A stretch of 64,000 nucleotides of DNA from assembly GCA_015060245.1 (NCBI GenBank), contig SUYU01000013.1:6538-70537 (forward strand). Direction: 5' to 3'. The stretch comes from Bacteroidales bacterium. GTDB lineage: Bacteria; Bacteroidota; Bacteroidia; Bacteroidales; UBA932. The translations under genes and the position numbers were made by a program. Each line of letters opens with the position of its first letter. Positions within the stretch are counted from its first letter, which is position 1. Of this stretch, positions 3,361 to 40,778 are shown in pieces. The notes beneath the pieces are model-generated. The model searched no databases and was not told the DNA's origin. It was given only the letters and a program-made list of their open reading frames with translations.

Positions 3361-3369
3361 CAACCATTT

Positions 3370-4215: not shown

Positions 4216-4343
4216 AGAAACGCCCCATATACGATTGAAAACATGGGTAAAATTGTATAATTATCTGCTTATGAGTGTTTCCTGTTTGTCCGATAAAATA
4301 TTCTAATGCATTTCCATGCTACATTTAGGACACAAGAAAGGAG

Positions 4344-4725: not shown

Positions 4726-5715
4726 TTACCTCCTTTTTTTTGCCCGTGGATGGGCGGTTATGTATATTTTTTTCAACTGTTCAAATGAGTTGTGCGTGTA
4801 AACCTGCGTTGCTGCCAACGAAGAGTGACCCAACACCTCCTTAATACTGTTCAGCCCCGCCCCGTCATTGAGAAGATGCGTTGCCAACGAATGTCTGAGG
4901 ATGTGAGGGGATTTTTTACCGCCAAACTCCTTGAAAGTCATCAATTCCTTTTTGACCACATTGTTGACAAACGAAAGGTAGAGAGGTCTGCCTCTGTCTG
5001 TCAAGAAAAATGAGTCATCAGTACAATCTTTGAAAGAACTCTTTCTTGTTTGTAAATATAATAAAATTTTATCATATAAACAATCTATTACCGGAATTTC
5101 TCTCTCTTTGGCCCCTTTTCCTGTAATTTTGAATAATTTTCTTGACAAATCAAGATTCTGGAGTTTCAATCCTGCCACTTCGGCACGTCTCATTCCTGTT
5201 GAGTAGAGCAGCAGGAGCATTGTCCTGTCTCTTACCGACGGGTAGTCATCCCCCACAGGCGAGTTCAGATATGCATCAAGATCATCTTTTGTGTAGAATT
5301 GCGGCAGACGGTGCTTCTCCTTTGGTCTGTAGACCCCAGCAACGGGATTGCTCTGCAACAGGCCCCTTTTCAAAAGATATCTGCAATAACTTCCAATGCC
5401 GCTCAACAGAAGATTTACACTCCTGGAACTCATTCCCTCCTTAAGGTTACTGGCCACAAATCCCCTTATTCTTGGTGTTGTGAGCATATTCAGTTGCTGC
5501 TGCACGTCTGCCCCATCCTCGGGTGCATGATCATCAGTTGAGGAACCGGCTTGAGAATCAGTCGGGGATTTCTCAAGGGAGAGGGCATAGGCAAAGAAGC
5601 GCTCCACAGCATCGCTGTACAGCAGAACGGTCCTTTCGGAATATCTTCTGTGGACTCTCAAATACTCAATATACTCATCAATGAATGCTATCATGGTTCC
5701 ATGAAATATATACAA
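4726..5715 (-). CDS. tyrosine recombinase, XerC/XerD-like
   Basis: N-terminal SAM-like domain (YLRVHRRYSERTVLLYSDAVERFF) and a catalytic C-terminus (HILRHSLATHLL, GHSSLAATQVYTH). The likely true start is the Met at 5694 (MIAFIDEY). It has an acidic low-complexity insert. Confidence 0.8.
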   Translation of the reverse strand: MYIFHGTMIAFIDEYIEYLRVHRRYSERTVLLYSDAVERFFAYALSLEKSPTDSQAGSSTDDHAPEDGADVQQQLNMLTTPRIRGFVASNLKEGMSSRSVNLLLSGIGSYCRYLLKRGLLQSNPVAGVYRPKEKHRLPQFYTKDDLDAYLNSPVGDDYPSVRDRTMLLLLYSTGMRRAEVAGLKLQNLDLSRKLFKITGKGAKEREIPVIDCLYDKILLYLQTRKSSFKDCTDDSFFLTDRGRPLYLSFVNNVVKKELMTFKEFGGKKSPHILRHSLATHLLNDGAGLNSIKEVLGHSSLAATQVYTHNSFEQLKKIYITAHPRAKKRR

Positions 5716-25827: not shown

Positions 25828-27441
25828 ATGACAGAGAGAAAAAGACGCGTAAGATTTGCGCCAAGTCCAACAGGACCTCTTCACATGGGTGGAGTAAGGA
25901 CAGCCCTATACAATTACCTCTACGCAAAACAGGCCGGAGGAGATTTTATCTTGAGAATTGAGGATACAGACTCCCAGCGCTTTGTTCCGGGAGCGGAGAA
26001 ATATATAATTGAATCATTGAAATGGTGCGGAATCTATCCCGACGAGGGAGTTGATGCAGAGGGCAATGTAATTGAAACACCTTCTGAGAGGCATCCGCAT
26101 GCACCATACCGCCAGTCACAGCGAAAACCTATCTACAGGGCATATGCAGAGCAACTTATTGAGAACGGATATGCCTACTACGCATTTGACTCGGCTGAGG
26201 AACTTGATGCTAAACGCAAGGAGGCAGAGGCGAACAAGAGCACATTTACCTACAACTACATTACCCGAATGGAGTTGAAGAACTCGCTTACTTTGCCTGC
26301 AGAGGAGGTTGAGAACTTGCTCAAGACCACAAACAACTGGACAGTACGTTTCAAGAACCCTGAAAACAGGGTTGTAGAGATGGATGACCTTATCCGCGGC
26401 CACATTGAGATAAACACAAATACACTTGATGACAAAGTGTTGTGGAAAGCGGCAGACCAGTTGCCTACCTATCACCTTGCCAATATTGTAGATGACCATC
26501 TTATGGAGATTACAGAGGTTATACGCGGCGAAGAGTGGCTGCCTTCTCTCCCACTCCACTACCTTCTTTATGAAGCATTCGGATGGCAGGAGTCGCAGCC
26601 CCGTTTTGCCCACCTTTCTCTTCTTCTCAAACCCGACGGAAAGGGCAAATTGAGCAAACGCGACGGTGACCGCCTCGGATTCCCTGTATTCCCGCTAAAA
26701 TGGGTCAATGCCGAGGGTGAGGTATCGCGCGGATACAGAGAAGACGGCTACTATCCGGAAGCCTTTGTAAACATGCTTGCACTACTTGGCTGGAACCCGG
26801 GCACAGAGCAGGAACTCTTCACTTTGGATGAACTTATAGAGGTATTCTCACTTGAAAGGGTAATCAAATCGGGAGCCCGTTTCAACCCGGATAAAGCAAA
26901 ATGGTTCAATCAGGAGTATTTGAGAAAACAGACCAACAGCCAGTTGGCAGAGCAGTTCTCCACTATTCTTGAGGAAAAAGGCATAACAGTAGAGAGCAAT
27001 GAAAAAGGAATAAGGGCCGATTTTGAGGGTAAAAACTTCTCTTTTGGCTATGTGGAGTCACTCTGTGGCCTGATTAAAGAGAGAGCCCACTTTGTGGCTG
27101 ACTTCTGGGACATCTGCAGTTATTTCTTCATTGCACCTGCAAGTTACGCAGAAAAAGATGTCAAGAAGTTCTGGAATGCAGAGACCAAAGCCATTATTGA
27201 AAAGATGTACTCGCACATTGAGGCAATGGATCCTCAAATGCAGGTACCTCAGATTGAAGAGTACCTTACAGGTTATGTAAAGGAGAATGAATGGAAGATG
27301 GGAGCAGTCATGAATACATTGCGTCTCTTCTTTGTAGGCGAGGCAAAAGGCCTCGGCATTGCCGACATAGTTTACCTGATTGGCCAGAAAGAGACTCTCG
27401 GCCGTATCTCTGCAGCAATAGAGGCTCTTCCTGTAGAATAA
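25828..27441 (+). CDS. gltX: glutamate--tRNA ligase
   Basis: HIGH-type motif PTGPLHMGGVRTA and KMSKS-type motif KLSKR. Confidence 0.95.
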   Translation: MTERKRRVRFAPSPTGPLHMGGVRTALYNYLYAKQAGGDFILRIEDTDSQRFVPGAEKYIIESLKWCGIYPDEGVDAEGNVIETPSERHPHAPYRQSQRKPIYRAYAEQLIENGYAYYAFDSAEELDAKRKEAEANKSTFTYNYITRMELKNSLTLPAEEVENLLKTTNNWTVRFKNPENRVVEMDDLIRGHIEINTNTLDDKVLWKAADQLPTYHLANIVDDHLMEITEVIRGEEWLPSLPLHYLLYEAFGWQESQPRFAHLSLLLKPDGKGKLSKRDGDRLGFPVFPLKWVNAEGEVSRGYREDGYYPEAFVNMLALLGWNPGTEQELFTLDELIEVFSLERVIKSGARFNPDKAKWFNQEYLRKQTNSQLAEQFSTILEEKGITVESNEKGIRADFEGKNFSFGYVESLCGLIKERAHFVADFWDICSYFFIAPASYAEKDVKKFWNAETKAIIEKMYSHIEAMDPQMQVPQIEEYLTGYVKENEWKMGAVMNTLRLFFVGEAKGLGIADIVYLIGQKETLGRISAAIEALPVE

Positions 27442-27522
27442 CCGGGCAAGAGCACCGGCAACGGAAAAGGCATCTCCATAAATTGCGTGATACTGACCCA
27501 AAAGTCATCTATATAAATAGCG

Positions 27523-27554
27523 AATCCCTGTTAGAGTGTGTTCTAACAGGGATT
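27523..27554. terminator. hairpin between the convergent gltX and the accessory block (possibly a bidirectional terminator)
   Basis: 13-bp stem AATCCCTGTTAGA / TCTAACAGGGATT with a 6-nt loop, followed by a T-rich run on the plus strand. Confidence 0.6.
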
Positions 27555-27625
27555 TGCTGTTTGATAAAGAATCTTCCAAGTAATCCTCATGATTGTTTTG
27601 AAAAGATCTTATGGGTTACCCGCTA

Positions 27626-27735
27626 CTATTTTAGCGTTGCAACCACCAGCACCGGATTGCTCTCCTCTGTGAGAGTGGCGGCTATCTCTTTCATTTTTGG
27701 AGAATTGCTCTTTGTGGCATATTCAATGAATTTGT
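27626..27735 (-). repeat. shared 3'-end repeat, copy A
   Basis: Near-identical at nucleotide level to the copies at 31640, 32904 and 34614 (ctattttagcgttgcaaccac.agcaccggattgctctc...ggagaattgctctttgtggcatattcaat). Confidence 0.9.
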
Positions 27736-28834
27736 CAGCAGCAATAATCTGATACATCTTGTTGCCTATACAATGTTGTGGATCAAATGGAGCACCGCCA
27801 TCAATATCATTAACGAAACCATGAGCCTTGAATTCATAATTATAAGGCATCGTATATAACTCATTACTGACCTTATCCAGAATCATAACTCCTTTTTTAA
27901 ATTCAGAATCAGATCCTCTGCTATATATGCCCGACAATGAATATTTATTGCCCAATAAAGAAATACTAATAAAACTTGCGCACTCTTTTACACTATTGAA
28001 GTTTACATCAAACCTCAACCTGTCGCCACCATCCTTCGTAATGACATCCCTTTTATACTTTCCAAAATCAAATATATAATTGGACAATTCCTTAAAATCA
28101 GTACTGAAGAGAGTAAGCCTGTCACCCATACCATTAAACACCCTCAAAGCACCATTAAATGAATACACCAAATCCGGGCAGACGATATCCATATCTCCTA
28201 AAAATGCCCCCTTCATACAATAAGAACCCTCCTCTGACAATTCGTATGAAAAAACAACTTTTGACATAGTATCAACAACAAATACCTTCTGCAAATACTT
28301 AAGTTTATCCACCATTATTGCCGCTGTAAATGCATAGTTGCCTTTCTCCAAATATGCTCCATACCTTATTGTTGAGCCACCTTGAATATTAGGTCTAATT
28401 ACCCTAACATTGCTGTTTTCTACATAACATGAAAGAATCTTGAAATCATCAAAAAGACAAAAATCACTATTCAAGTCATGCTCTACCGAAAGTCCCTGAA
28501 TCGAAAGATACTCCTTTGGCCCACGACCTTTCCTATCAACAGTTCGTACATATTTACCTGAAGTGTCAAACACCAGTACGCTCTCCTCTTGAGTCTGTAC
28601 ATAATAATACTTTCCGTCAAAATCAAATCTTGGCACATATCCCATGACAGATTCCGGAGTAGTTTCCAAAGGTATATATTCTATTTCCTTGGCATACCTG
28701 CCCAATTTTACCTCTTTACAATTCTTTACCGCATTCTCAACAGAAAAATGCTTATTATCCACTCTGACACTACCCTCGGCAGTACCAGAACAGCAAATAA
28801 GAACAACAGACAACAATAAAAATACATTTCTCAT
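27626..28834 (-). CDS. paralog A: lipoprotein of the '6-bladed beta-propeller / BF3164-like' family
   Basis: Lipobox (MRNVFLLLSVVLICCSG; Met at 28834 preferred), family motifs EIEYIPLET, KGRGPKEY and NDIDGG, and the shared tail ...KFIEYATKSNSPKMKEIAATLTEESNPVLVVATLK. The family call comes from memory of annotated Bacteroidales proteins, not from a search. Confidence 0.7.
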   Translation of the reverse strand: MRNVFLLLSVVLICCSGTAEGSVRVDNKHFSVENAVKNCKEVKLGRYAKEIEYIPLETTPESVMGYVPRFDFDGKYYYVQTQEESVLVFDTSGKYVRTVDRKGRGPKEYLSIQGLSVEHDLNSDFCLFDDFKILSCYVENSNVRVIRPNIQGGSTIRYGAYLEKGNYAFTAAIMVDKLKYLQKVFVVDTMSKVVFSYELSEEGSYCMKGAFLGDMDIVCPDLVYSFNGALRVFNGMGDRLTLFSTDFKELSNYIFDFGKYKRDVITKDGGDRLRFDVNFNSVKECASFISISLLGNKYSLSGIYSRGSDSEFKKGVMILDKVSNELYTMPYNYEFKAHGFVNDIDGGAPFDPQHCIGNKMYQIIAADKFIEYATKSNSPKMKEIAATLTEESNPVLVVATLK

Positions 28835-28873
28835 AACAATACACTTTTCTACAGCAGGGAATATTTCTACCAC

Positions 28874-28945
28874 CTATTTTAGCGTTGCAACCACAAGCAC
28901 CGGATTGCTCTCCTCTGTGAGGGTGGAGGCGATCTCTTTAATCTG
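28874..28945 (-). repeat. shared 3'-end repeat, copy B (shorter)
   Basis: The first ~70 nt from the stop are near-identical to the other copies, then the sequence diverges. Confidence 0.85.
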
Positions 28946-30067
28946 CGGATTATCATACATTGATGCATATTCTACAAAATCAATTGCATCAACGAGCCAT
29001 ACACACTTTCCATCACTTGTAAACCACTGGGGGAAAAATGGCAATCCTCCATCAAGATCATTCTCAAATGCAACCATCCCTATTTGTGGAATATTTTTCA
29101 TTGCATATAATTGGGACTCTTTATTATCATACAATAAAAAACCTACAGACTTCACATTACCCCCACCACAAATAGTAGAGAAATAACTGTCTGGAAAAAT
29201 AAATGATAAAAGGAAAAAATTATCACAACCTCTTGCCCCTGCAAAAAACAACTTCTCGCGTGGATTTGAATTATGCCTCAAGTCCCCATATTTTCCAAAA
29301 TCTATATTATATGCAACAGACTTCTCTTCTCCGTTCAGTCTATAAATGGTTTCAAAATCCCCCTTTACCAAATGAACTGTCCCATCCATACCTTTATAGA
29401 GTTTTGAATTTGCAAGAGTGGTTCCCTCTTTACCCATCATCAACATTGGAGTTCTGTACAATTCTCCCACATTAATTACAGCCTCAACAGTTCCATTACC
29501 ATTGAGCAATACACAATGCTCAACCAAGTCTCTTGTAAGTGAATCCTGTTTTGATGTCAGAATAACATACCCATTCTGTGCCGGCATAAAATCATCTATG
29601 TACTTAACTCCAATATCCTTGACTTCCTGTAAGGATATATTGTCAATCAAATCCAATTCTTGGTCATACACCAGAATCTTTTCTCGGGTAAGTACTGAAG
29701 TATTTCCTAACTTTTCATCAAAAACTAAACTTTGAATAAAGAAATATTCGTTTAAGCCTCTTCCTCGAGTACCAATTTTTCCTTTAAACTCTCCTTTGTG
29801 ATTGAAACACCGGATTTCATCGCCATGTGATGCAAAATTATATTGGCCATTACCGCCTGAAAAAAGAAGCACATTACCCAAAAGAGACTCCTCATTCGTT
29901 TGCAGTGGTATATACTCTATAGAAGAGAAGTACTTGCTCATCTTCAAAGTTTGAGCCTCCCCAACCGCTTTCGCAAAATCAAGTTTTTTGACTTCCTGTT
30001 TATCATTTGCACAGCCAAATGCAAACAAGAACAATACAAATACTACATATTTTCTAAACATATACAT
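28874..30067 (-). CDS. paralog B: lipoprotein of the same propeller-like family
   Basis: Lipobox LFAFGC, SIEYIPLQT, RGRGLNEY, NDLDGG, and the same final 22 aa (KEIASTLTEESNPVLVVATLK). Confidence 0.7.
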   Translation of the reverse strand: MYMFRKYVVFVLFLFAFGCANDKQEVKKLDFAKAVGEAQTLKMSKYFSSIEYIPLQTNEESLLGNVLLFSGGNGQYNFASHGDEIRCFNHKGEFKGKIGTRGRGLNEYFFIQSLVFDEKLGNTSVLTREKILVYDQELDLIDNISLQEVKDIGVKYIDDFMPAQNGYVILTSKQDSLTRDLVEHCVLLNGNGTVEAVINVGELYRTPMLMMGKEGTTLANSKLYKGMDGTVHLVKGDFETIYRLNGEEKSVAYNIDFGKYGDLRHNSNPREKLFFAGARGCDNFFLLSFIFPDSYFSTICGGGNVKSVGFLLYDNKESQLYAMKNIPQIGMVAFENDLDGGLPFFPQWFTSDGKCVWLVDAIDFVEYASMYDNPQIKEIASTLTEESNPVLVVATLK

Positions 30068-30176
30068 ATCTTAATTAGTTGGTAAATCATCTTCGCCTAC
30101 CCATTGACATCTTTTACATGTATAATAAATTTGGGCTTAGCAATGAAAAGTGAAAACGGGCCAGGCACAGAAATGC

Positions 30177-31280
30177 CTAAACCTCCATATAACCTAATCT
30201 GAAATCACCCTCATTATAATCACCATAAAGAAGATAGAGTTTATTACCGGTATCATCATACTTTATGTCAAATATTTCTCTATTCAATTTATATGTTTTC
30301 AATAATCTTCCTGCCCAATCATACTCTAAGATATAGTACAAATCATCTTCTAAATCTAACTTCCTGCCATAATATACGGCATATATCCTTTCTTGTGATA
30401 CAGCAATAGATACAAAACCCGTTACATCATAACTATGCTGATGATATGTGCATCCTCCTCCAGAATGCAACTTAATATATAATTTGGGAACGTGATACCT
30501 ATTCTCATTCAATAATACTATTGAATCATTTTCAAGTGAGTAAATACCCATATACGCACCATAATTTGTCCCAGTTACCATTCTTTTTCCATCCGGTCTT
30601 ACAGCAATTCTGGCAAAATCAAACATTTTTCTGCTGATCAATTCTTTGTGTTTTATTTCCACAATATTCGGATATAATGCAAATGTATCTAACAATTTAC
30701 CTTTATTATCATACAATTCGTACAGGTTCCTGTTCTTTCTCTTATTACCTGGAGTTGCTATAATTCTATCGTTTATAGGAATAATATCCGCAAAAGCCAA
30801 TTGCCCCATAAATTTACCTGGAACAGGAGACAATCTTGTAAATTCAAACGGATATGAATGTGACATTATCTCTTTTACTTTATATGTATACACCGTACTT
30901 AAAGGTAAGTGTACAACATAATAAGTACTGTCATTACCTGTTGTAAAATGTACATATGTCATACCCATAATAAATTCTCCAGGCCCTCTGCCAATAGCCG
31001 CAAAACTCTTCAAATACTCGCCTGTCCTTTTTGAAAAAAGATGTTGGGTATATTCATAATCGGAGCCCGTAGCAACTACAAAACTATCTTTAACAGCGAG
31101 TTTATGATAATGAGCCGTTTCTTTCTCTATCCTGGTTATTTCAATTACATCAGCATCTTTTGCCTTACTCAAATCAGGAGGAATAAAGGCTAGAGGATTA
31201 TCATTGGCTCTATTACATGATGAAAAGGTTACGATTGTGCAAACAATATAAAAAATAATAGATGCTAATCTTAATTCCAT
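30177..31280 (-). CDS. divergent lipoprotein, distantly related to the propeller-like paralogs and lacking the shared tail
   Basis: Lipobox TFSSC and a GRGPGEF motif in the equivalent position. The C-terminus differs (…EGDFRLGYMEV) and there is no 3' repeat. Confidence 0.55.
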   Translation of the reverse strand: MELRLASIIFYIVCTIVTFSSCNRANDNPLAFIPPDLSKAKDADVIEITRIEKETAHYHKLAVKDSFVVATGSDYEYTQHLFSKRTGEYLKSFAAIGRGPGEFIMGMTYVHFTTGNDSTYYVVHLPLSTVYTYKVKEIMSHSYPFEFTRLSPVPGKFMGQLAFADIIPINDRIIATPGNKRKNRNLYELYDNKGKLLDTFALYPNIVEIKHKELISRKMFDFARIAVRPDGKRMVTGTNYGAYMGIYSLENDSIVLLNENRYHVPKLYIKLHSGGGCTYHQHSYDVTGFVSIAVSQERIYAVYYGRKLDLEDDLYYILEYDWAGRLLKTYKLNREIFDIKYDDTGNKLYLLYGDYNEGDFRLGYMEV

Positions 31281-31297
31281 TTTACATATGATATAAG

Positions 31298-31555
31298 TTA
31301 CTCTTCTTTGGTAGAAAAATCATATCCACATGTTGGGCAGATACCTCTTGTCAATTTACCATCGCCACCTTTGGGATTTGAACCATCCTCAGGAGCAAAT
31401 AATTCTCCACATCCTGGGCACACAAATATACACATATTAGTGGATGTTCCTTTACATGTTCCATAAATACCAGTAGACTCTGATTGAACTACTTGCGCAA
31501 TAGAATAAACTGCAGCCAATAAAATTGTCACTACCGACAAACCTATAATCAACAA
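31298..31555 (-). CDS. small membrane/exported protein P1 with two CPxC knuckles (zinc-ribbon-like)
   Basis: Hydrophobic N-terminus LLIIGLSVVTILLAAVYSIA, then CPGCG-23 aa-CPTCG and an acidic end. The start is uncertain: the TTG at 31555 is used in the track, and the in-frame upstream codons read ...KIKKR with no ATG. Confidence 0.55.
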   Translation of the reverse strand: MLIIGLSVVTILLAAVYSIAQVVQSESTGIYGTCKGTSTNMCIFVCPGCGELFAPEDGSNPKGGDGKLTRGICPTCGYDFSTKEE

Positions 31556-31627
31556 TCTCTTTTTTATCTTTTGATTGTTTTTAAGTAATTCTACAAGCAG
31601 TGACTATGTTGCCCCACAAAGGCTGCA

Positions 31628-31751
31628 ACCTCCCCAATCCTATTTTAGCGTTGCAACCACAAGCACCGGATTGCTCTCATCTGTGAGGGTGGAGGCAATC
31701 TCTTTCATTTGCGGAGAATTGCTCTTTGTGGCATATTCAATAAACTTGTCG
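31628..31751 (-). repeat. shared 3'-end repeat, copy C (includes 12 nt past the stop)
   Basis: Near-identical to copies D and E, including cctccccaatc downstream of the stop. Confidence 0.9.
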
Positions 31752-32836
31752 GCATTTATCATCTGATACATCTTATCTCCAGCATAGTATACAGGATCAA
31801 ATGGCATACCCCCATCAATATCATTCACAAAGCCATGAGCGTTGTACTTATAATTATATGGCATTGCTTTAAGTTTATTAGTGGCTTTGTCCAGAATCAA
31901 ACTGCCTGCAGATAAAAATTTATCATTATTACCATTGGCATATATCTCCTGTAAAGAGTGCTTGTTGCCCATAAGGATAAGTTTTATAAAAGACTCCGTT
32001 TCAAATACATTATTAATACGCAGTCCCTTTGAATTATTTATAACTACATCATTTGGATTATAGTTACCATAATCAAAAGTATAACATAACAACCTCTCAT
32101 AATTATCATCATATACTACAAGAGTATCACCTGTAGACTTTAAATATCTTAAACAACCTTTAAATGAATATAATGAGCCACTAGTTGTGGAAGTTCCTTT
32201 TATCCCCCAATTGTACACAGACTCTGTTCCTAAAATTCCCAAATTCTTTATATTCAATAAAGAATCAATAATAAATAAACCTAATGTATCTTTTCCATCA
32301 ATATTGGGAGTAGATGTACGCACTGCCATTTCCCCATCTTTAATAAAGAGACAAGAAGATACATTTGATATACCCAAAGTATCAAGATCCAAAGCCTCCA
32401 CACACTCACCATCAAGGGTATAACCAAGTATTTTAGAACCGCTTATTACGCTTATTTGATTATCCTCTTTTATGGTAAAACCATCTATCAGCATATACTC
32501 CTTTGGTCCCCTGCCATGATTATTTATAAGATTTGTGAATTTTCCATTTGAATCAAATACTGTTATGTTTGTTGAACTGTATACATAATAATTACTGTTA
32601 CCCGCTCTAAACTTGGGCGCAAGACCAATAATTGATTCCTCCTTTGTTTCCAAAGGAATATATGCTATATCTGAAGCATACTCACTCAAACATATCTCCT
32701 GGCAATTCTGCATAGCCTCCTCTATGGAATATGTTCTATTATCATTATGATTAGAGACATTGCCTGTACACCCTGTTAAAAGAAACAGCCCCATAGCAAT
32801 GAAAGCGGCATACAAATTATTGAATTCTTTTACCAT
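31640..32836 (-). CDS. paralog C: lipoprotein of the propeller-like family
   Basis: Lipobox LLTGC, DIAYIPLET, HGRGPKEY, NDIDGG and the shared tail. Confidence 0.7.
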   Translation of the reverse strand: MVKEFNNLYAAFIAMGLFLLTGCTGNVSNHNDNRTYSIEEAMQNCQEICLSEYASDIAYIPLETKEESIIGLAPKFRAGNSNYYVYSSTNITVFDSNGKFTNLINNHGRGPKEYMLIDGFTIKEDNQISVISGSKILGYTLDGECVEALDLDTLGISNVSSCLFIKDGEMAVRTSTPNIDGKDTLGLFIIDSLLNIKNLGILGTESVYNWGIKGTSTTSGSLYSFKGCLRYLKSTGDTLVVYDDNYERLLCYTFDYGNYNPNDVVINNSKGLRINNVFETESFIKLILMGNKHSLQEIYANGNNDKFLSAGSLILDKATNKLKAMPYNYKYNAHGFVNDIDGGMPFDPVYYAGDKMYQMINADKFIEYATKSNSPQMKEIASTLTDESNPVLVVATLK

Positions 32837-32840
32837 ATTA

Positions 32841-33010
32841 ACATAATTTGCATTTGCACAAAATTACAGCAAACATTTATTAAAGCCAAGAACCTCCCCA
32901 ATCTTATTTTAGCGTTGCAACCACAAGCACCGGATTGCTCTCCTCTGTGAGGGTGGCGGCTATCTCTTTCATTTTTGGAGAATTGCTCTTTGTGGCATAT
33001 TCAATAAATT
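32841..33010 (-). repeat. shared 3'-end plus downstream-intergenic repeat, copy D
   Basis: About 170 nt align with 34551-34720 at a constant offset of 1710 nt, with only a few substitutions. Confidence 0.9.
32859..32866 (-). promoter_or_regulatory. candidate -7 box TAATTTTG inside the repeated intergenic cassette, upstream of paralog C
   Basis: The minus strand reads TAATTTTG, 22 nt before the ATG at 32836. A TCTTG lies 20 nt further upstream as a possible -33 element. Confidence 0.45.
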
Positions 33011-34136
33011 TCATAGCATTTACAGCCTGATACATTTTATTACCCACAACGCGTAAAGGCACAAACGGCGCACCACCATCAATGTCATTTTTGAAACCAT
33101 GAGCATTGAATTCATAATTATACGGCAAAGCGCACATCTTATTGCTTGCTTTATCCAACATCAGGAAGCAAGTTACACGATCTTTGTGCCAACCATCTGT
33201 GTTCCATCCCTTACTGAAGACTTTCGGCATGGCCTTCAAGCGCCCGTCAAGTTTAAACAGCATAAAACTGTCAGACTCAATATTCCACCTATGCTCAATT
33301 CCTGTAATGAATTCATCTTTGACTCCATGTGAATTGCTATAATCAAAGGTAATTTGTGATAATTCTTTCAAATTATTATCATAAAATACTATTGTATCGG
33401 CGGGTAATCCTTTAGACAGCCTTAAATTCCCTTTATATGAATGAATGAATAAACCATAATTCAGACTAAATTTATTTTCCAGATTCTCGTCCTTCAATAT
33501 ATTGCATAATGTATCAACTACAAGCAGCCTCGATGATGAAAAGGACCATTTCTTATCTGGCTCACGTTTACCCGTGCATAAAACAGCATACCTGCCTTCA
33601 TTAAGGTAGACGCCTCTATAAATGCCTGAAAAACTTGACTTGTTCAAATCTAGATTTTCACTGAGTACATCTTGCATATCCAATTCTCTTACACACTTTC
33701 CATCATCTTCATATACAAGTATTTTATAATTGTCAAACAGACAAGCATACTGCTCAACAAGATCACTTTCAAGAGAGAAGTCAGATGCGCTTAAATACTC
33801 TCCTGGGCCCCGTCCGCTTTTGTTTATCTGCGAAATATATTTACCATTCTGATCAAAGATCAATACGGATTGCGGCCTATTGGCATTGTAGATATACAAA
33901 TACTTCCCATCCGTGTTTATGTCAAACACAAACATCAATGATGATTTTTCATTTGTTTCCAACGGTATATACTCTATATCTGAAAAATACTTGCTCAAAG
34001 GCACATCTGCACAATTCTCAAGTGCTTCAGAAATATTATAACGAGTATCTTCAACGCTTGCCACATTTGATCTACAGGAGACTATGGCAAACACACACAG
34101 TACCAATATATATTTACTAAATCTACTCATTGTCAT
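32904..34136 (-). CDS. paralog D: lipoprotein of the propeller-like family
   Basis: Lipobox FAIVSC, DIEYIPLET, SGRGPGEY, NDIDGG and the shared tail. The ATG at 34136 lies 2 nt after the P2 stop (the track start at 34142 is a TTG overlapping that stop). Confidence 0.7.
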   Translation of the reverse strand: MTMSRFSKYILVLCVFAIVSCRSNVASVEDTRYNISEALENCADVPLSKYFSDIEYIPLETNEKSSLMFVFDINTDGKYLYIYNANRPQSVLIFDQNGKYISQINKSGRGPGEYLSASDFSLESDLVEQYACLFDNYKILVYEDDGKCVRELDMQDVLSENLDLNKSSFSGIYRGVYLNEGRYAVLCTGKREPDKKWSFSSSRLLVVDTLCNILKDENLENKFSLNYGLFIHSYKGNLRLSKGLPADTIVFYDNNLKELSQITFDYSNSHGVKDEFITGIEHRWNIESDSFMLFKLDGRLKAMPKVFSKGWNTDGWHKDRVTCFLMLDKASNKMCALPYNYEFNAHGFKNDIDGGAPFVPLRVVGNKMYQAVNAMKFIEYATKSNSPKMKEIAATLTEESNPVLVVATLK

Positions 34137-34138
34137 TA

Positions 34139-34465
34139 TCAATAAATAATTACTATTCTATTTTCATCTAAATCAGATATATGGTAAATTTTATCTATTT
34201 CTGTAACAGAACCACAGACTTGGCAAGATATGTATGAAACATAAAAATAAGTATGATCTGTACTCATGTAATAACCACAATATTCCACTAAATTTGCCTG
34301 GTGACACACTTCACATCTTAATAATGCTGTATATGTTTGACCATTATCATTTGCGGATGTTTCAGAATTTAATCCTCCTACTGAAGTAGCCGCATTCAAA
34401 GTATTGAATGTAAAAAAAGCAATTAATGTAAGAAATAACATCTTACCAAAGGGTAATTTCTTCAT
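34139..34465 (-). CDS. small exported protein P2 with two CxxC knuckles
   Basis: Sec-type signal peptide MKKLPFGKMLFLTLIAFFTFNTLNA, then CEVCH-26 aa-CQVCG. Its stop abuts the start of paralog D. Confidence 0.65.
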   Translation of the reverse strand: MKKLPFGKMLFLTLIAFFTFNTLNAATSVGGLNSETSANDNGQTYTALLRCEVCHQANLVEYCGYYMSTDHTYFYVSYISCQVCGSVTEIDKIYHISDLDENRIVIIY

Positions 34466-34550
34466 AGCATAAATATTTTATAAAGTTAATAAATCCAAGT
34501 TTAAACATTCCCACTTGACAGCGTATCCCAAGCATTGGCTACGTTGCCAC

Positions 34551-34720
34551 ACAATATTTGCATTAGCACAAAATTACAGCAAACATTTATTAAAGCCAAG
34601 AACCTCCCCAATCCTATTTTAGCGTTGCAACCACAAGCACCGGATTGCTCTCCTCTGTGAGGGTGGCGGCTATCTCTTTCATTCTTGGAGAATTGCTCTT
34701 TGTGGCATATTCAATAAACT
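34551..34720 (-). repeat. shared 3'-end plus downstream-intergenic repeat, copy E
   Basis: See copy D. Confidence 0.9.
34569..34576 (-). promoter_or_regulatory. candidate -7 box TAATTTTG inside the repeated intergenic cassette, upstream of P2
   Basis: Same cassette as at 32859-32866, about 104 nt upstream of the P2 ATG. Confidence 0.4.
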
Positions 34721-35789
34721 TGTCGGCCTGAACCAATTGATATAAATATTTATCAGTGCAAAAATCGGGAAGAAAAGGAGCACCATAATCAATATCATTT
34801 TTAAAGCCATGAGTCTCAAATTCATAATTATATGGCATAGCACATAACTCTTTTTTTTGTTTGTCAAGAATCATAACTCCTGCTGCCAACCTTGAATCTG
34901 TACCTTTGGAATATAATTTGGCCAACGAATATTTATTGCCCAACAAACCAAATTTTATAAATCTGTCGGACTCTAAAATTTCTCTTGAATAATTACGGAG
35001 GCTATTGGGATTTTCTGCATCCAAATTATTGAAATCATATTTTCCATAATCAAATATATACCTGTCGGCCATACAATTGCCATCATATACAAACAGCGTA
35101 TCTCCATTTGCATTAAATATATATATGGAATCTTTATAGGCATATACCTTATCATTTTCTACAATTGTCATCCCATTCGCCAAAAACGAAGGCATAATAC
35201 CCAGTTCTATAGCCGATATAACATTTGATGCAGAATCTACAATTTGCAAAGATTGGTGTTCGGATTTACCTTCGCTTACCAATGCAAACATGCCTTTCCC
35301 CATATTTGCACTGGATCTTATTGACGAATAACCCGCTTGTTTTAAGTTTACGCACCTTAGACTCTTGCCTTCTATTGAATAAGAGAGTATTTTTAAACCA
35401 TCATCCACAGAGACCTCCTTATTATCTACAGATAGATGATTTACTCTCAAATACTCTTCCGGTCCCCTTCCCTTTTTATTTATTTTGCTTACGAATTTTC
35501 CTTCTTTATCAAAAATCAATATGCTGGAAGTGGATACATATATGTAGTTCTCATCGGTACAAAATAATGGATTCCTACCAATAAGAGCCTCATTTGTAGT
35601 CTGTAACGGGATATATCCCAGTTCCAATGCATACTGACTTAATGGAATATCGCGGCACATTTTAAGTGCTTCCGGAATAGAATACCTTAAGTTATCATTA
35701 TCATTGGCAGCAGAATTACATCCTGACAATAAAAGTACTATACCGCAACATAATGAAACAAAAAGCATTTTGACAAATAATCTGCTCAT
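34614..35789 (-). CDS. paralog E: lipoprotein of the propeller-like family
   Basis: Lipobox LLSGC, ELGYIPLQT, KGRGPEEY, NDIDYG and the shared tail. Confidence 0.7.
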   Translation of the reverse strand: MSRLFVKMLFVSLCCGIVLLLSGCNSAANDNDNLRYSIPEALKMCRDIPLSQYALELGYIPLQTTNEALIGRNPLFCTDENYIYVSTSSILIFDKEGKFVSKINKKGRGPEEYLRVNHLSVDNKEVSVDDGLKILSYSIEGKSLRCVNLKQAGYSSIRSSANMGKGMFALVSEGKSEHQSLQIVDSASNVISAIELGIMPSFLANGMTIVENDKVYAYKDSIYIFNANGDTLFVYDGNCMADRYIFDYGKYDFNNLDAENPNSLRNYSREILESDRFIKFGLLGNKYSLAKLYSKGTDSRLAAGVMILDKQKKELCAMPYNYEFETHGFKNDIDYGAPFLPDFCTDKYLYQLVQADKFIEYATKSNSPRMKEIAATLTEESNPVLVVATLK

Positions 35790-35819
35790 AATATTTGCCT
35801 ACCTCCCCGTTACATAAAT

Positions 35820-36101
35820 TTACTTATCTATATCTTCTTCCTCCGATATTATGGTCTCCTCTCCACAAGTATTGCATTTGATTTTTTCTACGATGAAATG
35901 CTCGGGATTGTTCAAATCTATATATCCATATAATCGTATGTCGTCACTACCGCATATAGGACACACAATTATAGATTGATTTTCGGCCTGAATATTTTCT
36001 TCATTCAAAATCAATAATACACCATTGCTATCTCCAGCATTTATATTTGATGAAATTACAGATACCAATAGCAATAAAGTTAGAAATTTAATTTTTTTCA
36101 T
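35820..36101 (-). CDS. small exported protein P3 with two CxxC knuckles
   Basis: Signal peptide MKKIKFLTLLLLVSVISSNINA, then CPICG-25 aa-CNTCG and an acidic tail EEEDIDK. Confidence 0.65.
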   Translation of the reverse strand: MKKIKFLTLLLLVSVISSNINAGDSNGVLLILNEENIQAENQSIIVCPICGSDDIRLYGYIDLNNPEHFIVEKIKCNTCGEETIISEEEDIDK

Positions 36102-36206
36102 AAAAACATCTTATAAGGTTATTAAATATAGTTTACTGTACAAACGAACCTTGTGCATAAATTTCAGATGAATCAATAATTCTATAATATGCGCCATTGG
36201 CGATTG

Positions 36207-36214
36207 CAAATATA
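36207..36214 (-). promoter_or_regulatory. candidate -7 box (TATATTTG) upstream of P3
   Basis: The minus strand matches TAnnTTTG, 32 nt downstream of the nearest GTTTGACA box. Confidence 0.35.
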
Positions 36215-36245
36215 GAGAATATATGGTTTTACCTCATAAAAAAAA

Positions 36246-36336
36246 GTTTGACACAGTTGTTTTTATTCAACTGATTTACAGATATATAGAATTTCAATTC
36301 TTGAAAAAGTTTGACAGGCGGGAAAAATGTTTGACA
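36246..36336 (-). promoter_or_regulatory. three direct GTTTGACA boxes (copy 1), a candidate operator array
   Basis: Boxes at 36246-36253, 36309-36316 and 36329-36336 (minus strand: YTGTCAAACWTTT). Spacings are 63 and 20 bp, close to whole helical turns. Confidence 0.5.
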
Positions 36337-36403
36337 AGTCTCTAATTTAACCTGTTTTGTGCCGATAGCCTAACCTGAAACCATCTTCATTATTTTAATT
36401 TCA

Positions 36404-38044
36404 TCAGTTGGACTTTAACAGATTGGTTATATACGTATTCAAATTGATGTTATTGATATCTGTTCCCAACTTCTTACGTATACTGCTGCTTATATGATAG
36501 TGACGGCTTTGGTTGGTATAGAATCCTATATCCTTGCCATTCATTCCTATTGCAAAGAGACAACAATACTCCATCTCCAATTCTGTAAGATTCCTTTCTT
36601 TCAGATGTGATATAAATCTGGGATGCGTAGATTTGTAGACAAGCAACAGGGAGTGCATAAACTCTTCCCTATCTTCTATAATAGTGTCTATCTTACGCCA
36701 CAACTCCTTTTCATCCCTGATTCTTGATATGAAGAGTTGGTTCAACAAATCTATTCTCTCCTTTATTATATCTGTTATTGATTTGTCAAGCGACATATTT
36801 GAGTCAAGCAACTCTTTCAAACTCGAAACCTCCTCTTCCAAAAGCGAATAAGAATGTGCCAATCTCTCCTTTTCTGCCTCTACCAATCTCTTTTCAAGCA
36901 GGCTTGACTTCAATTTTTGCCTGATGAGAACTATAATAAGCACAAGCATAAGAATAAACGATACTGATGCCAACAGTATCAGCCTCCTCAAGTTCTGCTG
37001 TTGCGTATTTTTTGTCTCGAGAGCATGCCGTTCCTCCAGGAATCGCGTATCTTCCCTTATTTGCAACAGACTCAATGAGTCACTATGAAGGAAATATTTC
37101 TTATAGCACATTAATGATTTTTCGTAATCATTAAAATTTTCATATATCTCTGATAGAATTGAATACATACGTGTTGGCCTTTCGTTTGTATAAATCTTAT
37201 ACCTTTCAACAGCATCATAAGCACTTTTATAATCCTTAATACTACAATATGCTGCGGCAACACTCAGCCATTCCACATTGCGGTGAGGTACTTTATAAGT
37301 ATATTCCAATATTGTATTTGCAACACTATCCCTTTCATAGTCTGACCTATAGGTAACCAATATTTCATAATATTGATTAAGCCAGTTGAGATTTTGGGCA
37401 GTATCAACGATACTTTCTATATACTTGAGTTCTTTAAAAGCATTTACTGAATCTGATTGTGCAAAATAACCATAAAAGAGCCTTCTGTGAGAATTGAACC
37501 AGGAACTCTCTTTACCTCCAAGTTTAAATAGATTTGCGGCTTCCTTCATACACTTGTTATGGGACTCAAAATCAAATACAGACCTGTAAATTATTCCTTG
37601 GGCAAACAGCATCCTTGCCCTGGTAAGATTGTCATTGGAGAGTTTACCCTCATCAAGACCTTTTACAAAAGCGGCCATTGCTGACTCTTCATCATGGCGG
37701 TTTCTGTAAATGGCTCCTTTATAATAGTACATGCGGAGTTTGTCTGTTGCACTGCCTTTGTGTGTATAGTAATCTATGGCGGGTTGCAACACAGAAAAGT
37801 CTGTGGTATCTATGTAATTCTTGTCCATAGCCATGGAGAGCAACAGGGAGTGCTTTGCCTCCACTTTTGCACTTCGCAGTTGCGATTGGTCAATTGACCG
37901 GAGTGTGGCCAGAGCACTGTCGGGATAATGCTCAATATATGAATCAACTTCATTGAGAAGATTTAATGCCGCACTGTTGTCACGGCATGAAACAAAAAGT
38001 GTGATTGCTGCTATAAGAAACAGATATGGAACTCTTACACTCAT
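36404..38044 (-). CDS. one-component membrane regulator: lipobox signal, TPR-like periplasmic domain, one TM helix, coiled coil and a C-terminal LuxR/GerE-like HTH (copy 1)
   Basis: N-terminus MSVRVPYLFLIAAITLFVSC, TPR-like helical repeats, TM helix LILLASVSFILMLVLIIVLI, and C-terminus LTELEMEYCCLFAIGMNGKDIGFYTNQSRHYHISSSIRKKLG. Confidence 0.6.
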   Translation of the reverse strand: MSVRVPYLFLIAAITLFVSCRDNSAALNLLNEVDSYIEHYPDSALATLRSIDQSQLRSAKVEAKHSLLLSMAMDKNYIDTTDFSVLQPAIDYYTHKGSATDKLRMYYYKGAIYRNRHDEESAMAAFVKGLDEGKLSNDNLTRARMLFAQGIIYRSVFDFESHNKCMKEAANLFKLGGKESSWFNSHRRLFYGYFAQSDSVNAFKELKYIESIVDTAQNLNWLNQYYEILVTYRSDYERDSVANTILEYTYKVPHRNVEWLSVAAAYCSIKDYKSAYDAVERYKIYTNERPTRMYSILSEIYENFNDYEKSLMCYKKYFLHSDSLSLLQIREDTRFLEERHALETKNTQQQNLRRLILLASVSFILMLVLIIVLIRQKLKSSLLEKRLVEAEKERLAHSYSLLEEEVSSLKELLDSNMSLDKSITDIIKERIDLLNQLFISRIRDEKELWRKIDTIIEDREEFMHSLLLVYKSTHPRFISHLKERNLTELEMEYCCLFAIGMNGKDIGFYTNQSRHYHISSSIRKKLGTDINNINLNTYITNLLKSN

Positions 38045-38172
38045 AAAACAATTTCTCTGTCATGATTGTACATATTGCCATACTGGCAATTTTAATTGGA
38101 AGTAATAACAAACTCTATCTTTATCTTCCCATTTCAACATCTTACCAGCGTTTATTATTAATACATAATTTG

Positions 38173-38180
38173 CAAAGTTA
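38173..38180 (-). promoter_or_regulatory. candidate -7 box (TAACTTTG) upstream of regulator copy 1
   Basis: The minus strand matches TAnnTTTG, 31 nt downstream of the nearest box of the second array. The geometry is the same as at 36207-36214. Confidence 0.35.
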
Positions 38181-38210
38181 AGCATACATGACATTATATC
38201 ATAAAAAAAA

Positions 38211-38301
38211 GTTTGACACAGTTGTTTTTATTCAACTGATTTACAGATATATAGAATTTAATTTTTTGAAAAAGTTTGACAGGCGGGAAAAATGTTTGAC
38301 A
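38211..38301 (-). promoter_or_regulatory. three direct GTTTGACA boxes (copy 2)
   Basis: Boxes at 38211-38218, 38274-38281 and 38294-38301, offset exactly 1965 nt from copy 1. Confidence 0.5.
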
Positions 38302-38368
38302 AGTCTCTAATTTAACCTGTTTTGTGCCGATAGCCTAACCTGAAACCATCTTCATTATTTTAATTTCA

Positions 38369-40006
38369 TCAGTTGGACTTTAACAGATTGGTTATATACG
38401 TATTCAAATTGATGTTATTGATATCTGTTCCCAACTTCTTACGTATACTGCTGCTTATATGATAGTGACGGCTTTGGTTGGTATAGAATCCTATATCCTT
38501 GCCATTCATTCCTATTGCAAAGAGACAACAGTACTCCATCTCCAATTCTGTAAGGTTCCTTTCTTTCAGATGTGATATAAATTTGGGATGCGTAGATTTG
38601 TAGACAAGCAACAGGGAGTGCATAAAATCTTCCCTGTCTTCTATAATGGTGTCTATCTTACGCCACAACTCCTTTTCATCCCTGATTCTTGATATAAAGA
38701 GTTGGTTCAACAAATCTATTCTCTCCTTTATTATATCTGTTATTGATTTGTCAAGCGAGATATTTGAGTCAAGCATATCTTTCAAACTCGATACCTCTTC
38801 TTCCAATAGTGAATAAGAATGTGCCAATCTCTCCTTTTCAGCCTCTACCAATCTCTTTTCAAGCAGGCTTGACTTCAATTTTTGCCTGATGACAACTACG
38901 ACAAGCAGTAACATGAGGATGAGAGATATGGATGCTGACAGTGTACGTTTCCTGGAGTTATCTTTTTCTGCATTTTCCAGTTTAAGGCCATATCGCTCCT
39001 CTATAAACTGCGTATCACTCTTCAGTTTTGCGACATTTGCTGAATCACTTCTTGAAAAATACTGCTTGTAATGGAACAATGCATCAGAAATATTACCTGA
39101 ATTCTCATGCAATTCCGACAATATAGCATGGTATCTGATATTCTGATCTGCATTATATTTGTCATATAGTCCTATAGCATCAAAACCACTATTATAATCA
39201 CCTGTGAGCAAATATGCCGCAGCAACTGAAAGCCACGGAATCTGTGAATGTTCAACATTTCTCAAATAATCAGATAATGTATTCTTAAGACTATCCTTTG
39301 CATATTGCATCTCATAACTGAGAATAGCCTCAAAACATCTATTCTTATCAGCCTTTATATCATTTAGAGCAATTTTTTTTAGATATTCTATTTGCTCTTT
39401 GGCCTTTATAGAATCATTCTTTGCAGAATATCCATAATATACATTAATCAAGGAATTTATCTCAGAGCGTCTGTTTCCTCCTTTACGAAAACAACATGAA
39501 GCCTCCTGCATACACTTTATATATGCGTCAAAGTTCCTTAAATTGTAGTATATGTTGCCTTGAGCAAACAGCATCCTTGCTCTGGTCAAATTGTCATTGG
39601 AGAGTTTCCCCTCATCAAGACCTTTTACCAAAGCGGCCATTGCAGACTCTTCATCATTGCGGTTTCTGTAAATGACACTTTTATAATAGTACATGCGGAG
39701 TTTGTCTGTTGCACTGCCTTTGTGTGTATAGTAATCTATGGCGGGTTGCAACACAGAAAAGTCTGTGGTGTCTATGTAATTCTTGTCCATAGCCATGGAG
39801 AGCAACAGGGAGTGCTTTGCCTCCACTTTTGCACTTCGCAGTTGCGATTGGTCAATTGACCGGAGTGTGGCCAGAGCACTGTCGGGATAATGCTCAATAT
39901 ATGAATCAACTTCATTGAGAAGATTTAATGCAGCACTATTGTCACGGCATGAAACAAAAAGTGTGATTGCTGCTATAAGAAACAGATATGGAACTCGGGC
40001 ACTCAT
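38369..40006 (-). CDS. one-component membrane regulator, same architecture (copy 2)
   Basis: The N-terminal ~148 aa and C-terminal ~175 aa are nearly identical to copy 1. The central ~225 aa (distal TPR region and TM helix) are strongly diverged. Confidence 0.6.
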   Translation of the reverse strand: MSARVPYLFLIAAITLFVSCRDNSAALNLLNEVDSYIEHYPDSALATLRSIDQSQLRSAKVEAKHSLLLSMAMDKNYIDTTDFSVLQPAIDYYTHKGSATDKLRMYYYKSVIYRNRNDEESAMAALVKGLDEGKLSNDNLTRARMLFAQGNIYYNLRNFDAYIKCMQEASCCFRKGGNRRSEINSLINVYYGYSAKNDSIKAKEQIEYLKKIALNDIKADKNRCFEAILSYEMQYAKDSLKNTLSDYLRNVEHSQIPWLSVAAAYLLTGDYNSGFDAIGLYDKYNADQNIRYHAILSELHENSGNISDALFHYKQYFSRSDSANVAKLKSDTQFIEERYGLKLENAEKDNSRKRTLSASISLILMLLLVVVVIRQKLKSSLLEKRLVEAEKERLAHSYSLLEEEVSSLKDMLDSNISLDKSITDIIKERIDLLNQLFISRIRDEKELWRKIDTIIEDREDFMHSLLLVYKSTHPKFISHLKERNLTELEMEYCCLFAIGMNGKDIGFYTNQSRHYHISSSIRKKLGTDINNINLNTYITNLLKSN

Positions 40007-40019
40007 TTTGGGGCAGTTG

Positions 40020-40778
40020 TTATTGTGCTATAAACCTGTATGCTATCTCTCCAATCTGTTTTTCCGGCGCACTTTGTGATGCAGAGAACCTGCTTCTTTT
40101 GGCTGCAGCAATGGCTGCCTTTATAAGGCACTCGTCGGATGAAGATGATGACCCTTCAATGATTGAGGCGGCAACAACATATCCTCTTCTGTTTACTGTA
40201 ATCTGCACATAAACATCGCCTCCGCCATAACATTTGTATACCGGCACCGGCAATGACATTCCTTTTCTTCCATCAAGTGAATATGAGAGCACAGAGGGGC
40301 CTTTATATGTTTCAGTTTTGCCCTTTTTCTCCTGGTTGCCTGTTGAAACATCATCATCACTACCCTGCTCCATCATGGCCTCCCTGCGGGAAGCGTCAAG
40401 TTTCTTCTGGAGTTCACGGGCCTCATCATAAACTTGTGAAGGATTCTTGAAGCGGTCATCCCTGAGGTTGCGGCCACTGCTTCTGTCTACCGCCACATTC
40501 CTGTAGGCAGAGGCCGAAACATTTCCATTCAAAAGATCTTCAACGGCCTTCTGCGCCTGAATCTTTATCTCCTCCTCCTTTATCTTCTGCTCCATCTCCT
40601 CCAAACCGGTAAAGTCAAGTACAAAGGCGGTCTCCTCCGCCACTACATTGCTTATTGTAGTTGCCAGCAGAACAATTATTATCACAAGATGGAACACCAC
40701 AGTTGAGTAGAAGCCTATTCTCCTCTCTTTGGTATTCAGAATCTCCCTGTTTATGTACTCCTTTACCCTTTTGAACAT
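40020..40778 (-). CDS. TonB C-terminal-domain-like membrane protein
   Basis: N-terminal TM helix, a charged/coiled linker, and a C-terminal GDVYVQITVNRRGYVVAASII...AAIAAAKRSRF segment resembling TonB_C. Met at 40778 preferred. Confidence 0.5.
   Translation of the reverse strand: MFKRVKEYINREILNTKERRIGFYSTVVFHLVIIIVLLATTISNVVAEETAFVLDFTGLEEMEQKIKEEEIKIQAQKAVEDLLNGNVSASAYRNVAVDRSSGRNLRDDRFKNPSQVYDEARELQKKLDASRREAMMEQGSDDDVSTGNQEKKGKTETYKGPSVLSYSLDGRKGMSLPVPVYKCYGGGDVYVQITVNRRGYVVAASIIEGSSSSSDECLIKAAIAAAKRSRFSASQSAPEKQIGEIAYRFIAQ

Follow-up and report, generated by a model that had tools for sequence, protein, structure and literature searches.

In the nuSa-alpha lpl lipoprotein cluster of Staphylococcus aureus, a central conserved region of 132 nucleotides (nt) with a mean identity of 88% is a site of recombination (Tsuru & Kobayashi 2008, PMC2568036), and strains carry deletions, conversions, translocations and substitutions of the cluster with breakpoints at this conserved stretch (PMC2568036). 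For Helicobacter pylori, the passages of PMC3960876 that relate Pride & Blaser 2002 describe how the 3' segments of babA and babB, and of homA and homB, are alike within a strain by gene conversion, with 5' and middle parts that follow orthology. Here, a related situation is considered in a stretch of 64,000 nt (the window; contig SUYU01000013.1, assembly GCA_015060245.1) from an uncultured gut Bacteroidales bacterium, relatives of which have been assembled from goat cecum samples. The window contains a tandem array with five diverged lipoprotein paralogs, A to E, that end in almost the same nucleotides. From comparison of sequences it is very likely that this shared 3' tail is a hotspot for homologous recombination in the array.

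Silent-site identity at the gene ends

The five genes are all read from the minus strand. Their open reading frames (ORFs) are E (34614..35789, 391 amino acids, aa), D (32904..34136, about 408-410 aa counted from the ATG), C (31640..32836, 398 aa), B (28874..30067, 397 aa, or 395 aa if a later ATG is used) and A (27626..28834, 402 aa from the ATG of MRNVF...), the last gene of the array, for which the ORF list gave a GTG start that extends it to 28873. In E (34614..34721), D (32904..33011, with a TAA stop), C (31640..31747) and A (27626..27733) the tail comprises the 35 final codons and the stop, while the tail of B (28874..28942) is homogenised over the 22 final codons and the stop only. The tails are direct copies of 69-108 nt with identities of 76-98%, compared with about 45% in the bodies of the genes. 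A 38-mer, GAGAGCAATCCGGTGCTTGTGGTTGCAACGCTAAAATA, occurs exactly five times, at the five gene ends and with at most one mismatch, where the chance expectation is none. In a protein-guided codon alignment, the nucleotide identity is 0.76-0.98 in the last 30 codons and 0.25-0.7 elsewhere.

To separate silent sites from protein conservation, consider those positions at which paralogs agree in an amino acid that has degenerate codons. Such cases number 1094 in the bodies, of which 547 (50%) have the same codon too. The proportion is 59% in the conserved 60 codons that precede the tail and reaches 90% (174 of 193) over the 35 final codons of A, C, D and E. The Nei-Gojobori proportion of synonymous differences (pS) tells the same. 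It is 0.66-0.77 in the bodies, i.e., saturated, and in a motif at -85..-65 that is conserved as protein it still amounts to 0.53-0.70, although the corresponding nonsynonymous proportion (pN) is 0.14-0.27. Over the 22 codons before the stop, pS falls to 0.00-0.18, whichever of the ten pairs is taken. At codons -35..-23, the pairs without B have values of 0.13-0.41 and those with B 0.57-0.86. Only A, C, D and E have thus been homogenised in this interval, and the shared tail measures 22 codons in B but 35 in the other four genes.

An earlier note on this DNA, made by eye, had described near identity over the last 35 or so codons of A, C, D and E and over some 22 in B, with the remainder of each gene diverged, and had argued that selection on the protein cannot alone account for identity at silent sites. 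The values of pS and the codon use bear out both lengths as well as the divergence of the bodies, and the argument about selection holds. Along a sliding window, the silent-site divergence of the tails is far below that of the bodies, and the by-eye alignment was not misleading. A collapsed repeat in the assembly can be rejected as the source of the identity, since copy-specific single-nucleotide differences between the tails are reproduced in four independent assemblies of the locus (L001-L004).

The identity continues past the stop codons. Thirteen nt, GATTGGGGAGGTT, are common to C (31627..31639, minus strand), D and E, and about 58 nt are common, with one mismatch, to D (32846..32903, minus strand), where they run into C, and E (34556..34613, minus strand); the earlier note had put these lengths at 12 and about 63 nt. 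The segment of about 58 nt contains TAATTTTG (32859-32866 and 34569-34576, minus strand). The -7 promoter motif of Bacteroides is TAnnTTTG, which TAATTTTG presumably matches, and the DNA shared by D and E may be a duplicated, putative promoter for the next gene.

Throughout the family, the tail is also strongly conserved as a peptide, with the C-terminal sequence ...MKEIAATLTEESNPVLVVATLK. In a word-indexed protein search, nearly all homologs with 25-45% identity terminate in ...MKE(I/V)AATLTEESNPV(L/M/I)V(V/E)ATLK. As such a search might pick its hits through the tail itself, it was repeated with residues 1-350 only and no word index. Of the 127 full-length homologs then obtained, with identities of 25-35%, 103 carried the C-terminal core ...(S/D)NP(V/I)....LK, and most of the longer motif was present in the closest subfamily. 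That the core persists when the bodies alone are used for the search means that the constraint on the protein is real, rather than an artefact of the search, and on these alignments the peptide is a strongly constrained signature of the family. In an AlphaFold2 model of E, the tail consists of two helices (355-364 and 368-374), a loop, ATLTEESNP, and a final beta-strand, VLVVATL, at 384-390. The peptide may act as a tag for docking to a partner, for example the propeller encoded by gene X of the array or the small CxxC proteins that are discussed below. A degenerate pattern for the tail was matched only 20 times in genomes that represent species, and at 37 loci in metagenomes; the lineage with the full version of the tail appears modest in size within the collections searched. 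The analysis thereby highlights a very strongly conserved C-terminal signature that extends over a large family of uncharacterised function.

The family assignment rests on profile matches, where a match above the gathering score to either of the Pfam families PF17170 and PF16288 was taken as membership. All five genes match PF17170 with 59.8-99.4 bits (cut-off 22.9), and A, C, D and E are above the cut-off for PF16288 too; by these matches A-E are DUF5128/DUF4934 six-bladed beta-propeller lipoproteins of Bacteroidota. NCBIfam had no family for them, and nothing relevant was found in the literature on DUF5128, DUF4934, DUF4933, BF3164, NVEALA, BF0058 or BT3442. The N-termini, as read by eye from the translations, are hydrophobic and end in ...SGC, ...TGC, ...VSC, ...FGC or ...CCSG, and are putative lipoprotein-type signal peptides with cysteine. 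The model of E (predicted local distance difference test 93, predicted template modelling score 0.88) is all-beta with a C-terminal helix pair, and when it was used in Foldseek the best match in the PDB was 4raa (BF0058 from Bacteroides fragilis), followed by NHL propellers. The predicted fold of E is accordingly a beta-propeller, with the number of blades, six, taken from the name of the family.

Gene orders and tail variants among strains

The array lies at a chromosomal position adjacent to gltX and ftsZ, which was recovered from many short-read metagenome assemblies and used as the site of comparison. The block is transcribed from a regulator gene at 38369-40006, through a second regulator gene at 36404-38044, and then s93, E, s108, D, C, s85, X, B and A, to a hairpin. 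Here, s93, s108 and s85 are small ORFs, and reg1 and reg2 stand for the regulators. The order reg2-reg1-s93-E-s108-D-C-s85-X-B-A is found in the window, in L001-L004 and in seven further contigs. Among related strains and species at least eight gene orders occur at the gltX-flanked site. L023 has reg2-reg1-C-X-B-A-D-C2, and L068 has B-A-[E-downstream + s108]-D. L025 has D followed by a C/A chimera, which is 100% C up to about -240 nt and thereafter 97-100% A. In L024, L069 and L070 the array is closed by X-B, in L030 and L022 the order is X-B-Dlike (65%), and in L026 and L027 it is X-s83-B-A (82%). L028 and L029 carry two novel members (n1-n2) and a D-like gene (72%), without a regulator. At least two independent assemblies show each of the following types: that of the window, the B-terminal one, and those of L030/L022, L026/L027 and L028/L029. 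The L023 contig is present in two samples.

Whichever gene ends the array, be it A, B, C2, C/A or D, its stop is followed by the same terminal flank (TAGCGGGTAACCC...), which in the window occupies 27515..27625 (minus strand) and includes a terminator-like hairpin at 27523-27554. In L068, the block that is found between E and C in the window sits after A, with both of its junctions at tails. The terminal genes of L030 and L022, when compared with that of L026 (A), have different bodies, with tail and downstream flank in common. The tail contains the junctions of L023, L024, L068, L069, L070, L030 and L022.

Two of these loci have further peculiarities. Gene C2 (L023, 9973-11197) is 93-100% identical to C of the window over its first 350 and last 420 nt, while its central 600 nt are only 50-75% identical to any gene recovered, which implies, as judged from the alignment, that the middle has been replaced from an unseen donor. 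In L069, the slot of C between the regulator and s85-X-B holds two small secreted or lipoprotein ORFs of 133 and 165 aa (3340-4254), for which no similarity to the propeller family was found.

The gltX of L024, L030 and L022 has about 98% identity with that of the window, but the neighbouring ftsZ only 79-83%; for L026, the identity is 88-90% in the X-B-A block and 78-79% in the flanks. The array is, in other words, more similar between species than are its flanks, and the similarities suggest that the island has been exchanged between species together with gltX. This bears on an extension of the hotspot reading, namely that the tail and the promoter-bearing DNA after the stop are themselves selected as a handle, i.e., as a platform without integrase by which surface-lipoprotein genes may be reassorted and imported within and between species. 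The extension is compatible with an island that is more alike between species than its surroundings, with a gltX identity of 98% at an ftsZ identity of 82%, and with an array-end gene that differs in almost every lineage; we regard it as unlikely.

The tails also share variant sites across paralogs. The variant T/G at -22 is present in the groups of A, B, C and D, the variant G/T at -54 in B and C, and the variant C/T at -49 in A and B. For the sites -54 and -22 all four gametes are found. A GAT (Asp) variant is carried by C in the window and by A and B in L068, and a TCA (Ser) variant by C and C2 in L023 and by A and D in L068. In the last 66 nt, the divergence is 4.5% for orthologs from different strains, 3.7% for paralogs of one strain and 3.4% for paralogs from different strains. 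The bodies of orthologs are 97-100% identical, and those of paralogs about 30-45% (protein). By this comparison the tails form a single pool, without orthology signal. The histories of the different parts are thus incongruent: bodies track orthology and tails do not, and the downstream flank tracks the position in the array, not the body that precedes it.

If there were no ongoing exchange, the identical 3' ends would have to come from one recent event, for example foreign bodies grafted on a resident tail, and would not yet have diverged. The low GC content of the array (0.35 compared with 0.45), together with its greater similarity between species, does point to DNA that has been acquired or exchanged, and tract lengths that differ by pair are what separate grafts would give. 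However, a single event does not account for the same variants segregating in different paralogs across strains, in all four combinations for one pair of sites, or for ortholog tails that differ more (4.5%) than ortholog bodies (1-3%), and there are several independent rearrangements with junctions in the tail. A single recent origin is for these reasons judged improbable.

Co-location and the proposed mechanism

The dependence of silent-site identity on co-location was determined for 33 genes of the family, in pairs with a body amino-acid identity below 60% and with the tail defined as the last 22 codons. For pairs at the same locus, the same-codon fraction is 0.52 in the body and 0.88 in the tail. 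For pairs in the same genome at other loci the corresponding values are 0.44 and 0.54, and for pairs from different genomes they are 0.46 and 0.54. Other genomes encode the same peptide with many different codons. Silent-site identity, therefore, largely follows co-location, and not the sequence as such. That identity is mainly found in co-located copies is expected from gene conversion and homologous recombination, and not from an RNA or DNA element. Among the tandem arrays of other lineages, those of L008, L043 and L061 are homogenised, each with shared post-stop sequences of its own, and those of L041 and L066 are not.

These observations bear directly on the proposal, also made in the earlier note, that a functional nucleic-acid element is embedded in the tail, such as a small RNA (sRNA) derived from the 3' end, a target for RNase or sRNA, or a terminator or processing signal, with silent sites under selection at the RNA or DNA level. 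Such an element would fit with an identity that runs 13-58 nt beyond the stop in C, D and E, and with a GC content at third codon positions (GC3) that is higher in the tails than in the bodies. But the silent sites of the same peptide are free to vary between genomes and between dispersed copies of one genome, the shared post-stop sequences vary by lineage, and A of L026 keeps the gene and yet has a tail that differs at silent sites. Moreover, an Rfam scan of 27000-40500 at E<=1 gave no match, the folds of tail and flank have z-scores from -1.4 to +1.0 and are not more stable than those of shuffled sequences, and a terminator-like hairpin follows A only, which is also the one notable result of a promoter and terminator scan that otherwise gave background counts. 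The proposal is, in consequence, not supported and highly improbable.

An orphan tail, i.e., IAATLTEESNPVIIEATLK and a stop without gene body, occurs at 1736-1795 (plus strand) of L014, from Candidatus Egerieisoma sp. (JAZNEW010000027.1). It is placed after a frameshifted BT3442-like regulator, beside core genes. Compared with the tail of a propeller gene 1.6 kilobases (kb) upstream, it has 2 differences in 60 nt.

Homogenisation at the locus is not confined to the propeller genes. The two BT3442-like regulator paralogs upstream of the array (36404-38044 and 38369-40006, minus strand) are both mosaic, with 95-100% nucleotide identity in the first 400 and last 700 nt, and in about 100 nt downstream, and only 49-56% in the middle 600 nt. 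As these genes have no tail, the process belongs to the locus and not to the sequence of the tail. GC3 is 0.41-0.46 in the ends of the regulators and 0.28-0.31 in their middle, and it is 0.55-0.64 in the tails of the paralogs as against 0.28-0.36 in their bodies and 0.18-0.45 in dispersed tails that are not homogenised. A raised GC3 in homogenised segments fits with GC-biased conversion, in what are few independent lineages.

The mosaic regulators count also against a dedicated site-specific recombinase with the tail and the post-stop motif as its attachment site, in the manner of an integron, a shufflon or a dif module. Sharp junctions at the stop codon with the shared GATTGGGGAGGTT after it, whole genes that act as cassettes, the orphan tail in L014, and an Xer-like tyrosine recombinase that is encoded in the window would all be in line with such a platform. 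Yet neither the window nor any of eight related loci has a recombinase within about 10 kb on either side of the array; the tails are all direct repeats, without inverted-repeat or palindromic core beyond GTTGCAAC, and the hairpin after A is the sole inverted repeat close to a tail; and the breakpoints vary, being inside the tail or, in L025, about 240 nt upstream. The only recombinase seen in the window, a protein of 322 aa of the Xer/phage-integrase type (4726-5694, minus strand), is 22 kb off, beyond the dcw cluster, and is housekeeping-like, probably a housekeeping gene. An integron- or dif-like site, with neither recombinase nor palindrome, was rejected, and a dedicated recombinase has very little chance of being right. 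Silent-cassette antigenic variation of the pilE/pilS, vlsE or msp2 type, with one expression site and promoterless partial donors, does not fit either, as each of the five genes is a full-length ORF that has a start codon and a signal peptide; a partial copy was seen only in another genome, as the orphan tail.

Homologous recombination between the tails, with no need for a dedicated recombinase or a nucleic-acid element, can be outlined as follows. Strong purifying selection on the last 22-35 residues, as seen in the family alignments, lets paralogs that are otherwise saturated retain similar DNA, so that the conserved peptide probably seeds the recombination. RecA-type recombination and gene conversion between direct repeats 1.2-1.7 kb apart would then erase the silent differences and leave 40-110 nt of near-perfect identity, or about 170 nt in the case of D and E, and this identity would in turn raise the rate of recombination. 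Crossovers in the tail, or just upstream of it, delete, duplicate, translocate or replace whole bodies, as the comparison of strains shows, while tail and downstream flank stay put and the tail serves as a handle for whole-gene cassettes. Finally, the tail on one side and gltX or the regulators on the other may permit cassettes to be exchanged between strains and species, with the tail as a possible anchor for import.

Some observations weigh against this mechanism, or limit its reach. The dependence on RecA is assumed, and recombination is deduced from sequences and not seen directly. A Sawyer-type permutation test gives P values of 0.0004-0.02 for A-D, C-E, D-E and C-D at -109..-51, and it is informative at these positions only, as the last 66 nt are nearly without polymorphic sites among the five copies. 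The dependence on co-location has exceptions in the non-array pairs L008/L011 and L009/L020, which share tails within a genome and may or may not be linked on the chromosome. Repeats of about 110 nt can cause mis-joins in short-read metagenome assemblies, from which all the comparison sequences come, and L025 and L068 are represented by one contig each. The junction in L025, about 240 nt upstream of the stop, means that the tail is the main but not the sole crossover zone.

Recombination at the tails remains the reading that we prefer, and with it stand two further suggestions of the earlier note. One was ongoing gene conversion anchored at the 3' end, and the other a handle by which bodies are swapped. 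Both are supported by the concentration of identity in co-located copies, by the movement of variants between paralogs, by tails in which orthologs are no closer than paralogs, and by gene orders that differ between strains, with junctions at tails; the locus, as seen in these assemblies, is not static. The conservation of the peptide throughout the family and the mosaic structure of the neighbouring regulators go beyond what the note contained.

Neighbouring genes and comparison with known systems

The array is held by a low-GC block (GC 0.34-0.37 compared with about 0.45 in the flanks), limited on one side by gltX (25828-27441, plus strand) and on the other by a TonB-like gene, followed by udk and asnS; every gene inside the block is on the minus strand. 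Gene X (30177..31280, minus strand) encodes a TolB-like propeller (PF15869) and has no shared tail. It is 99-100% identical across strains despite its reshuffled neighbours, and s85-X-B acts as a stable block. The small ORFs s93 (35820-36101, 93 aa), s108 (34139-34465, 108 aa) and s85 (31298-31555, 85 aa), all on the minus strand and interleaved with the propeller genes, have each a hydrophobic N-terminal segment and two CxxC pairs, and no convincing family was found for them in Pfam or NCBIfam. They vary by strain: s108 is missing in L023 and present in L068, and in L026 an ORF of 83 aa precedes B. The number of regulators varies as well, with one in L024 and L069 and none in L028. 

For annotation and assembly, repeats of about 110 nt at the gene ends are a warning, as they invite mis-joins and chimeric gene calls. 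As a hypervariable locus beside gltX, with a lipoprotein repertoire that differs in nearly every strain, the array is also where signs of selection by phage, host or niche might be sought.

How does the array compare with other systems in which genes or parts of genes are exchanged as modules? Integron cassettes with attC sites are single-gene units in the same orientation, with a recognisable shared 3' sequence and a content that differs between strains, and the present array is likewise made of same-orientation single-gene units that end in a shared 3' sequence. Here, however, there is no integrase, attI or imperfect palindrome, and the shared sequence is coding and explained by protein constraint together with homologous recombination. 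In the orphan toxin cassettes of contact-dependent growth inhibition (CDI; cdiA-CT/cdiI) and Rhs systems, a short conserved handle precedes a variable C-terminal toxin, arrays of alternative modules can be swapped by homologous recombination, and orphan fragments retain the handle only, without the 5' body. A short conserved handle that adjoins a highly variable module is common to CDI/Rhs and the present case, but in the latter the handle forms the C-terminus of genes that are all full-length, each with a signal peptide of its own, and there is no paired immunity gene.

Closer are the babA/babB and homA/homB genes of H. pylori, where, as that account describes them, concerted evolution is confined to the 3' segments of paralogous genes for surface proteins. 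They differ from the present genes in having dispersed loci, much longer shared segments and a conversion that is tied to adhesin switching, whereas the genes here are in tandem, with a tract of about 100 nt.

The nearest precedent is the lpl cluster of S. aureus. In both cases lipoprotein paralogs lie in tandem and in the same orientation on a genomic island, a stretch is conserved in nucleotides and in protein amid variable sequence, and no active site-specific recombinase is invoked. All that marks the lpl type is found here also: a conserved stretch of at least about 70 nt in tandem paralogs, breakpoints at that stretch, and incongruent histories. The stretch lies, however, at the extreme 3' end of the genes (69-108 nt, about 96% identity), and not in mid-gene as in lpl. 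Whole ORFs move as units with their upstream intergenic DNA, and there is no shuffling of two half-genes. The protein family is another one, the DUF5128/DUF4934 propellers, in another phylum, and the stretch coincides with the C-terminal signature of the family. What the array adds is a quantified case in which a short segment under protein constraint would become a self-reinforcing recombination hotspot, and whole genes thereby exchangeable cassettes. The closest precedents are, in summary, the lpl cluster and the 3' ends of babA and babB. Recombination at a conserved intragenic stretch was known before; the extreme 3' location, the whole-ORF cassettes and the uncharacterised Bacteroidales family are new.

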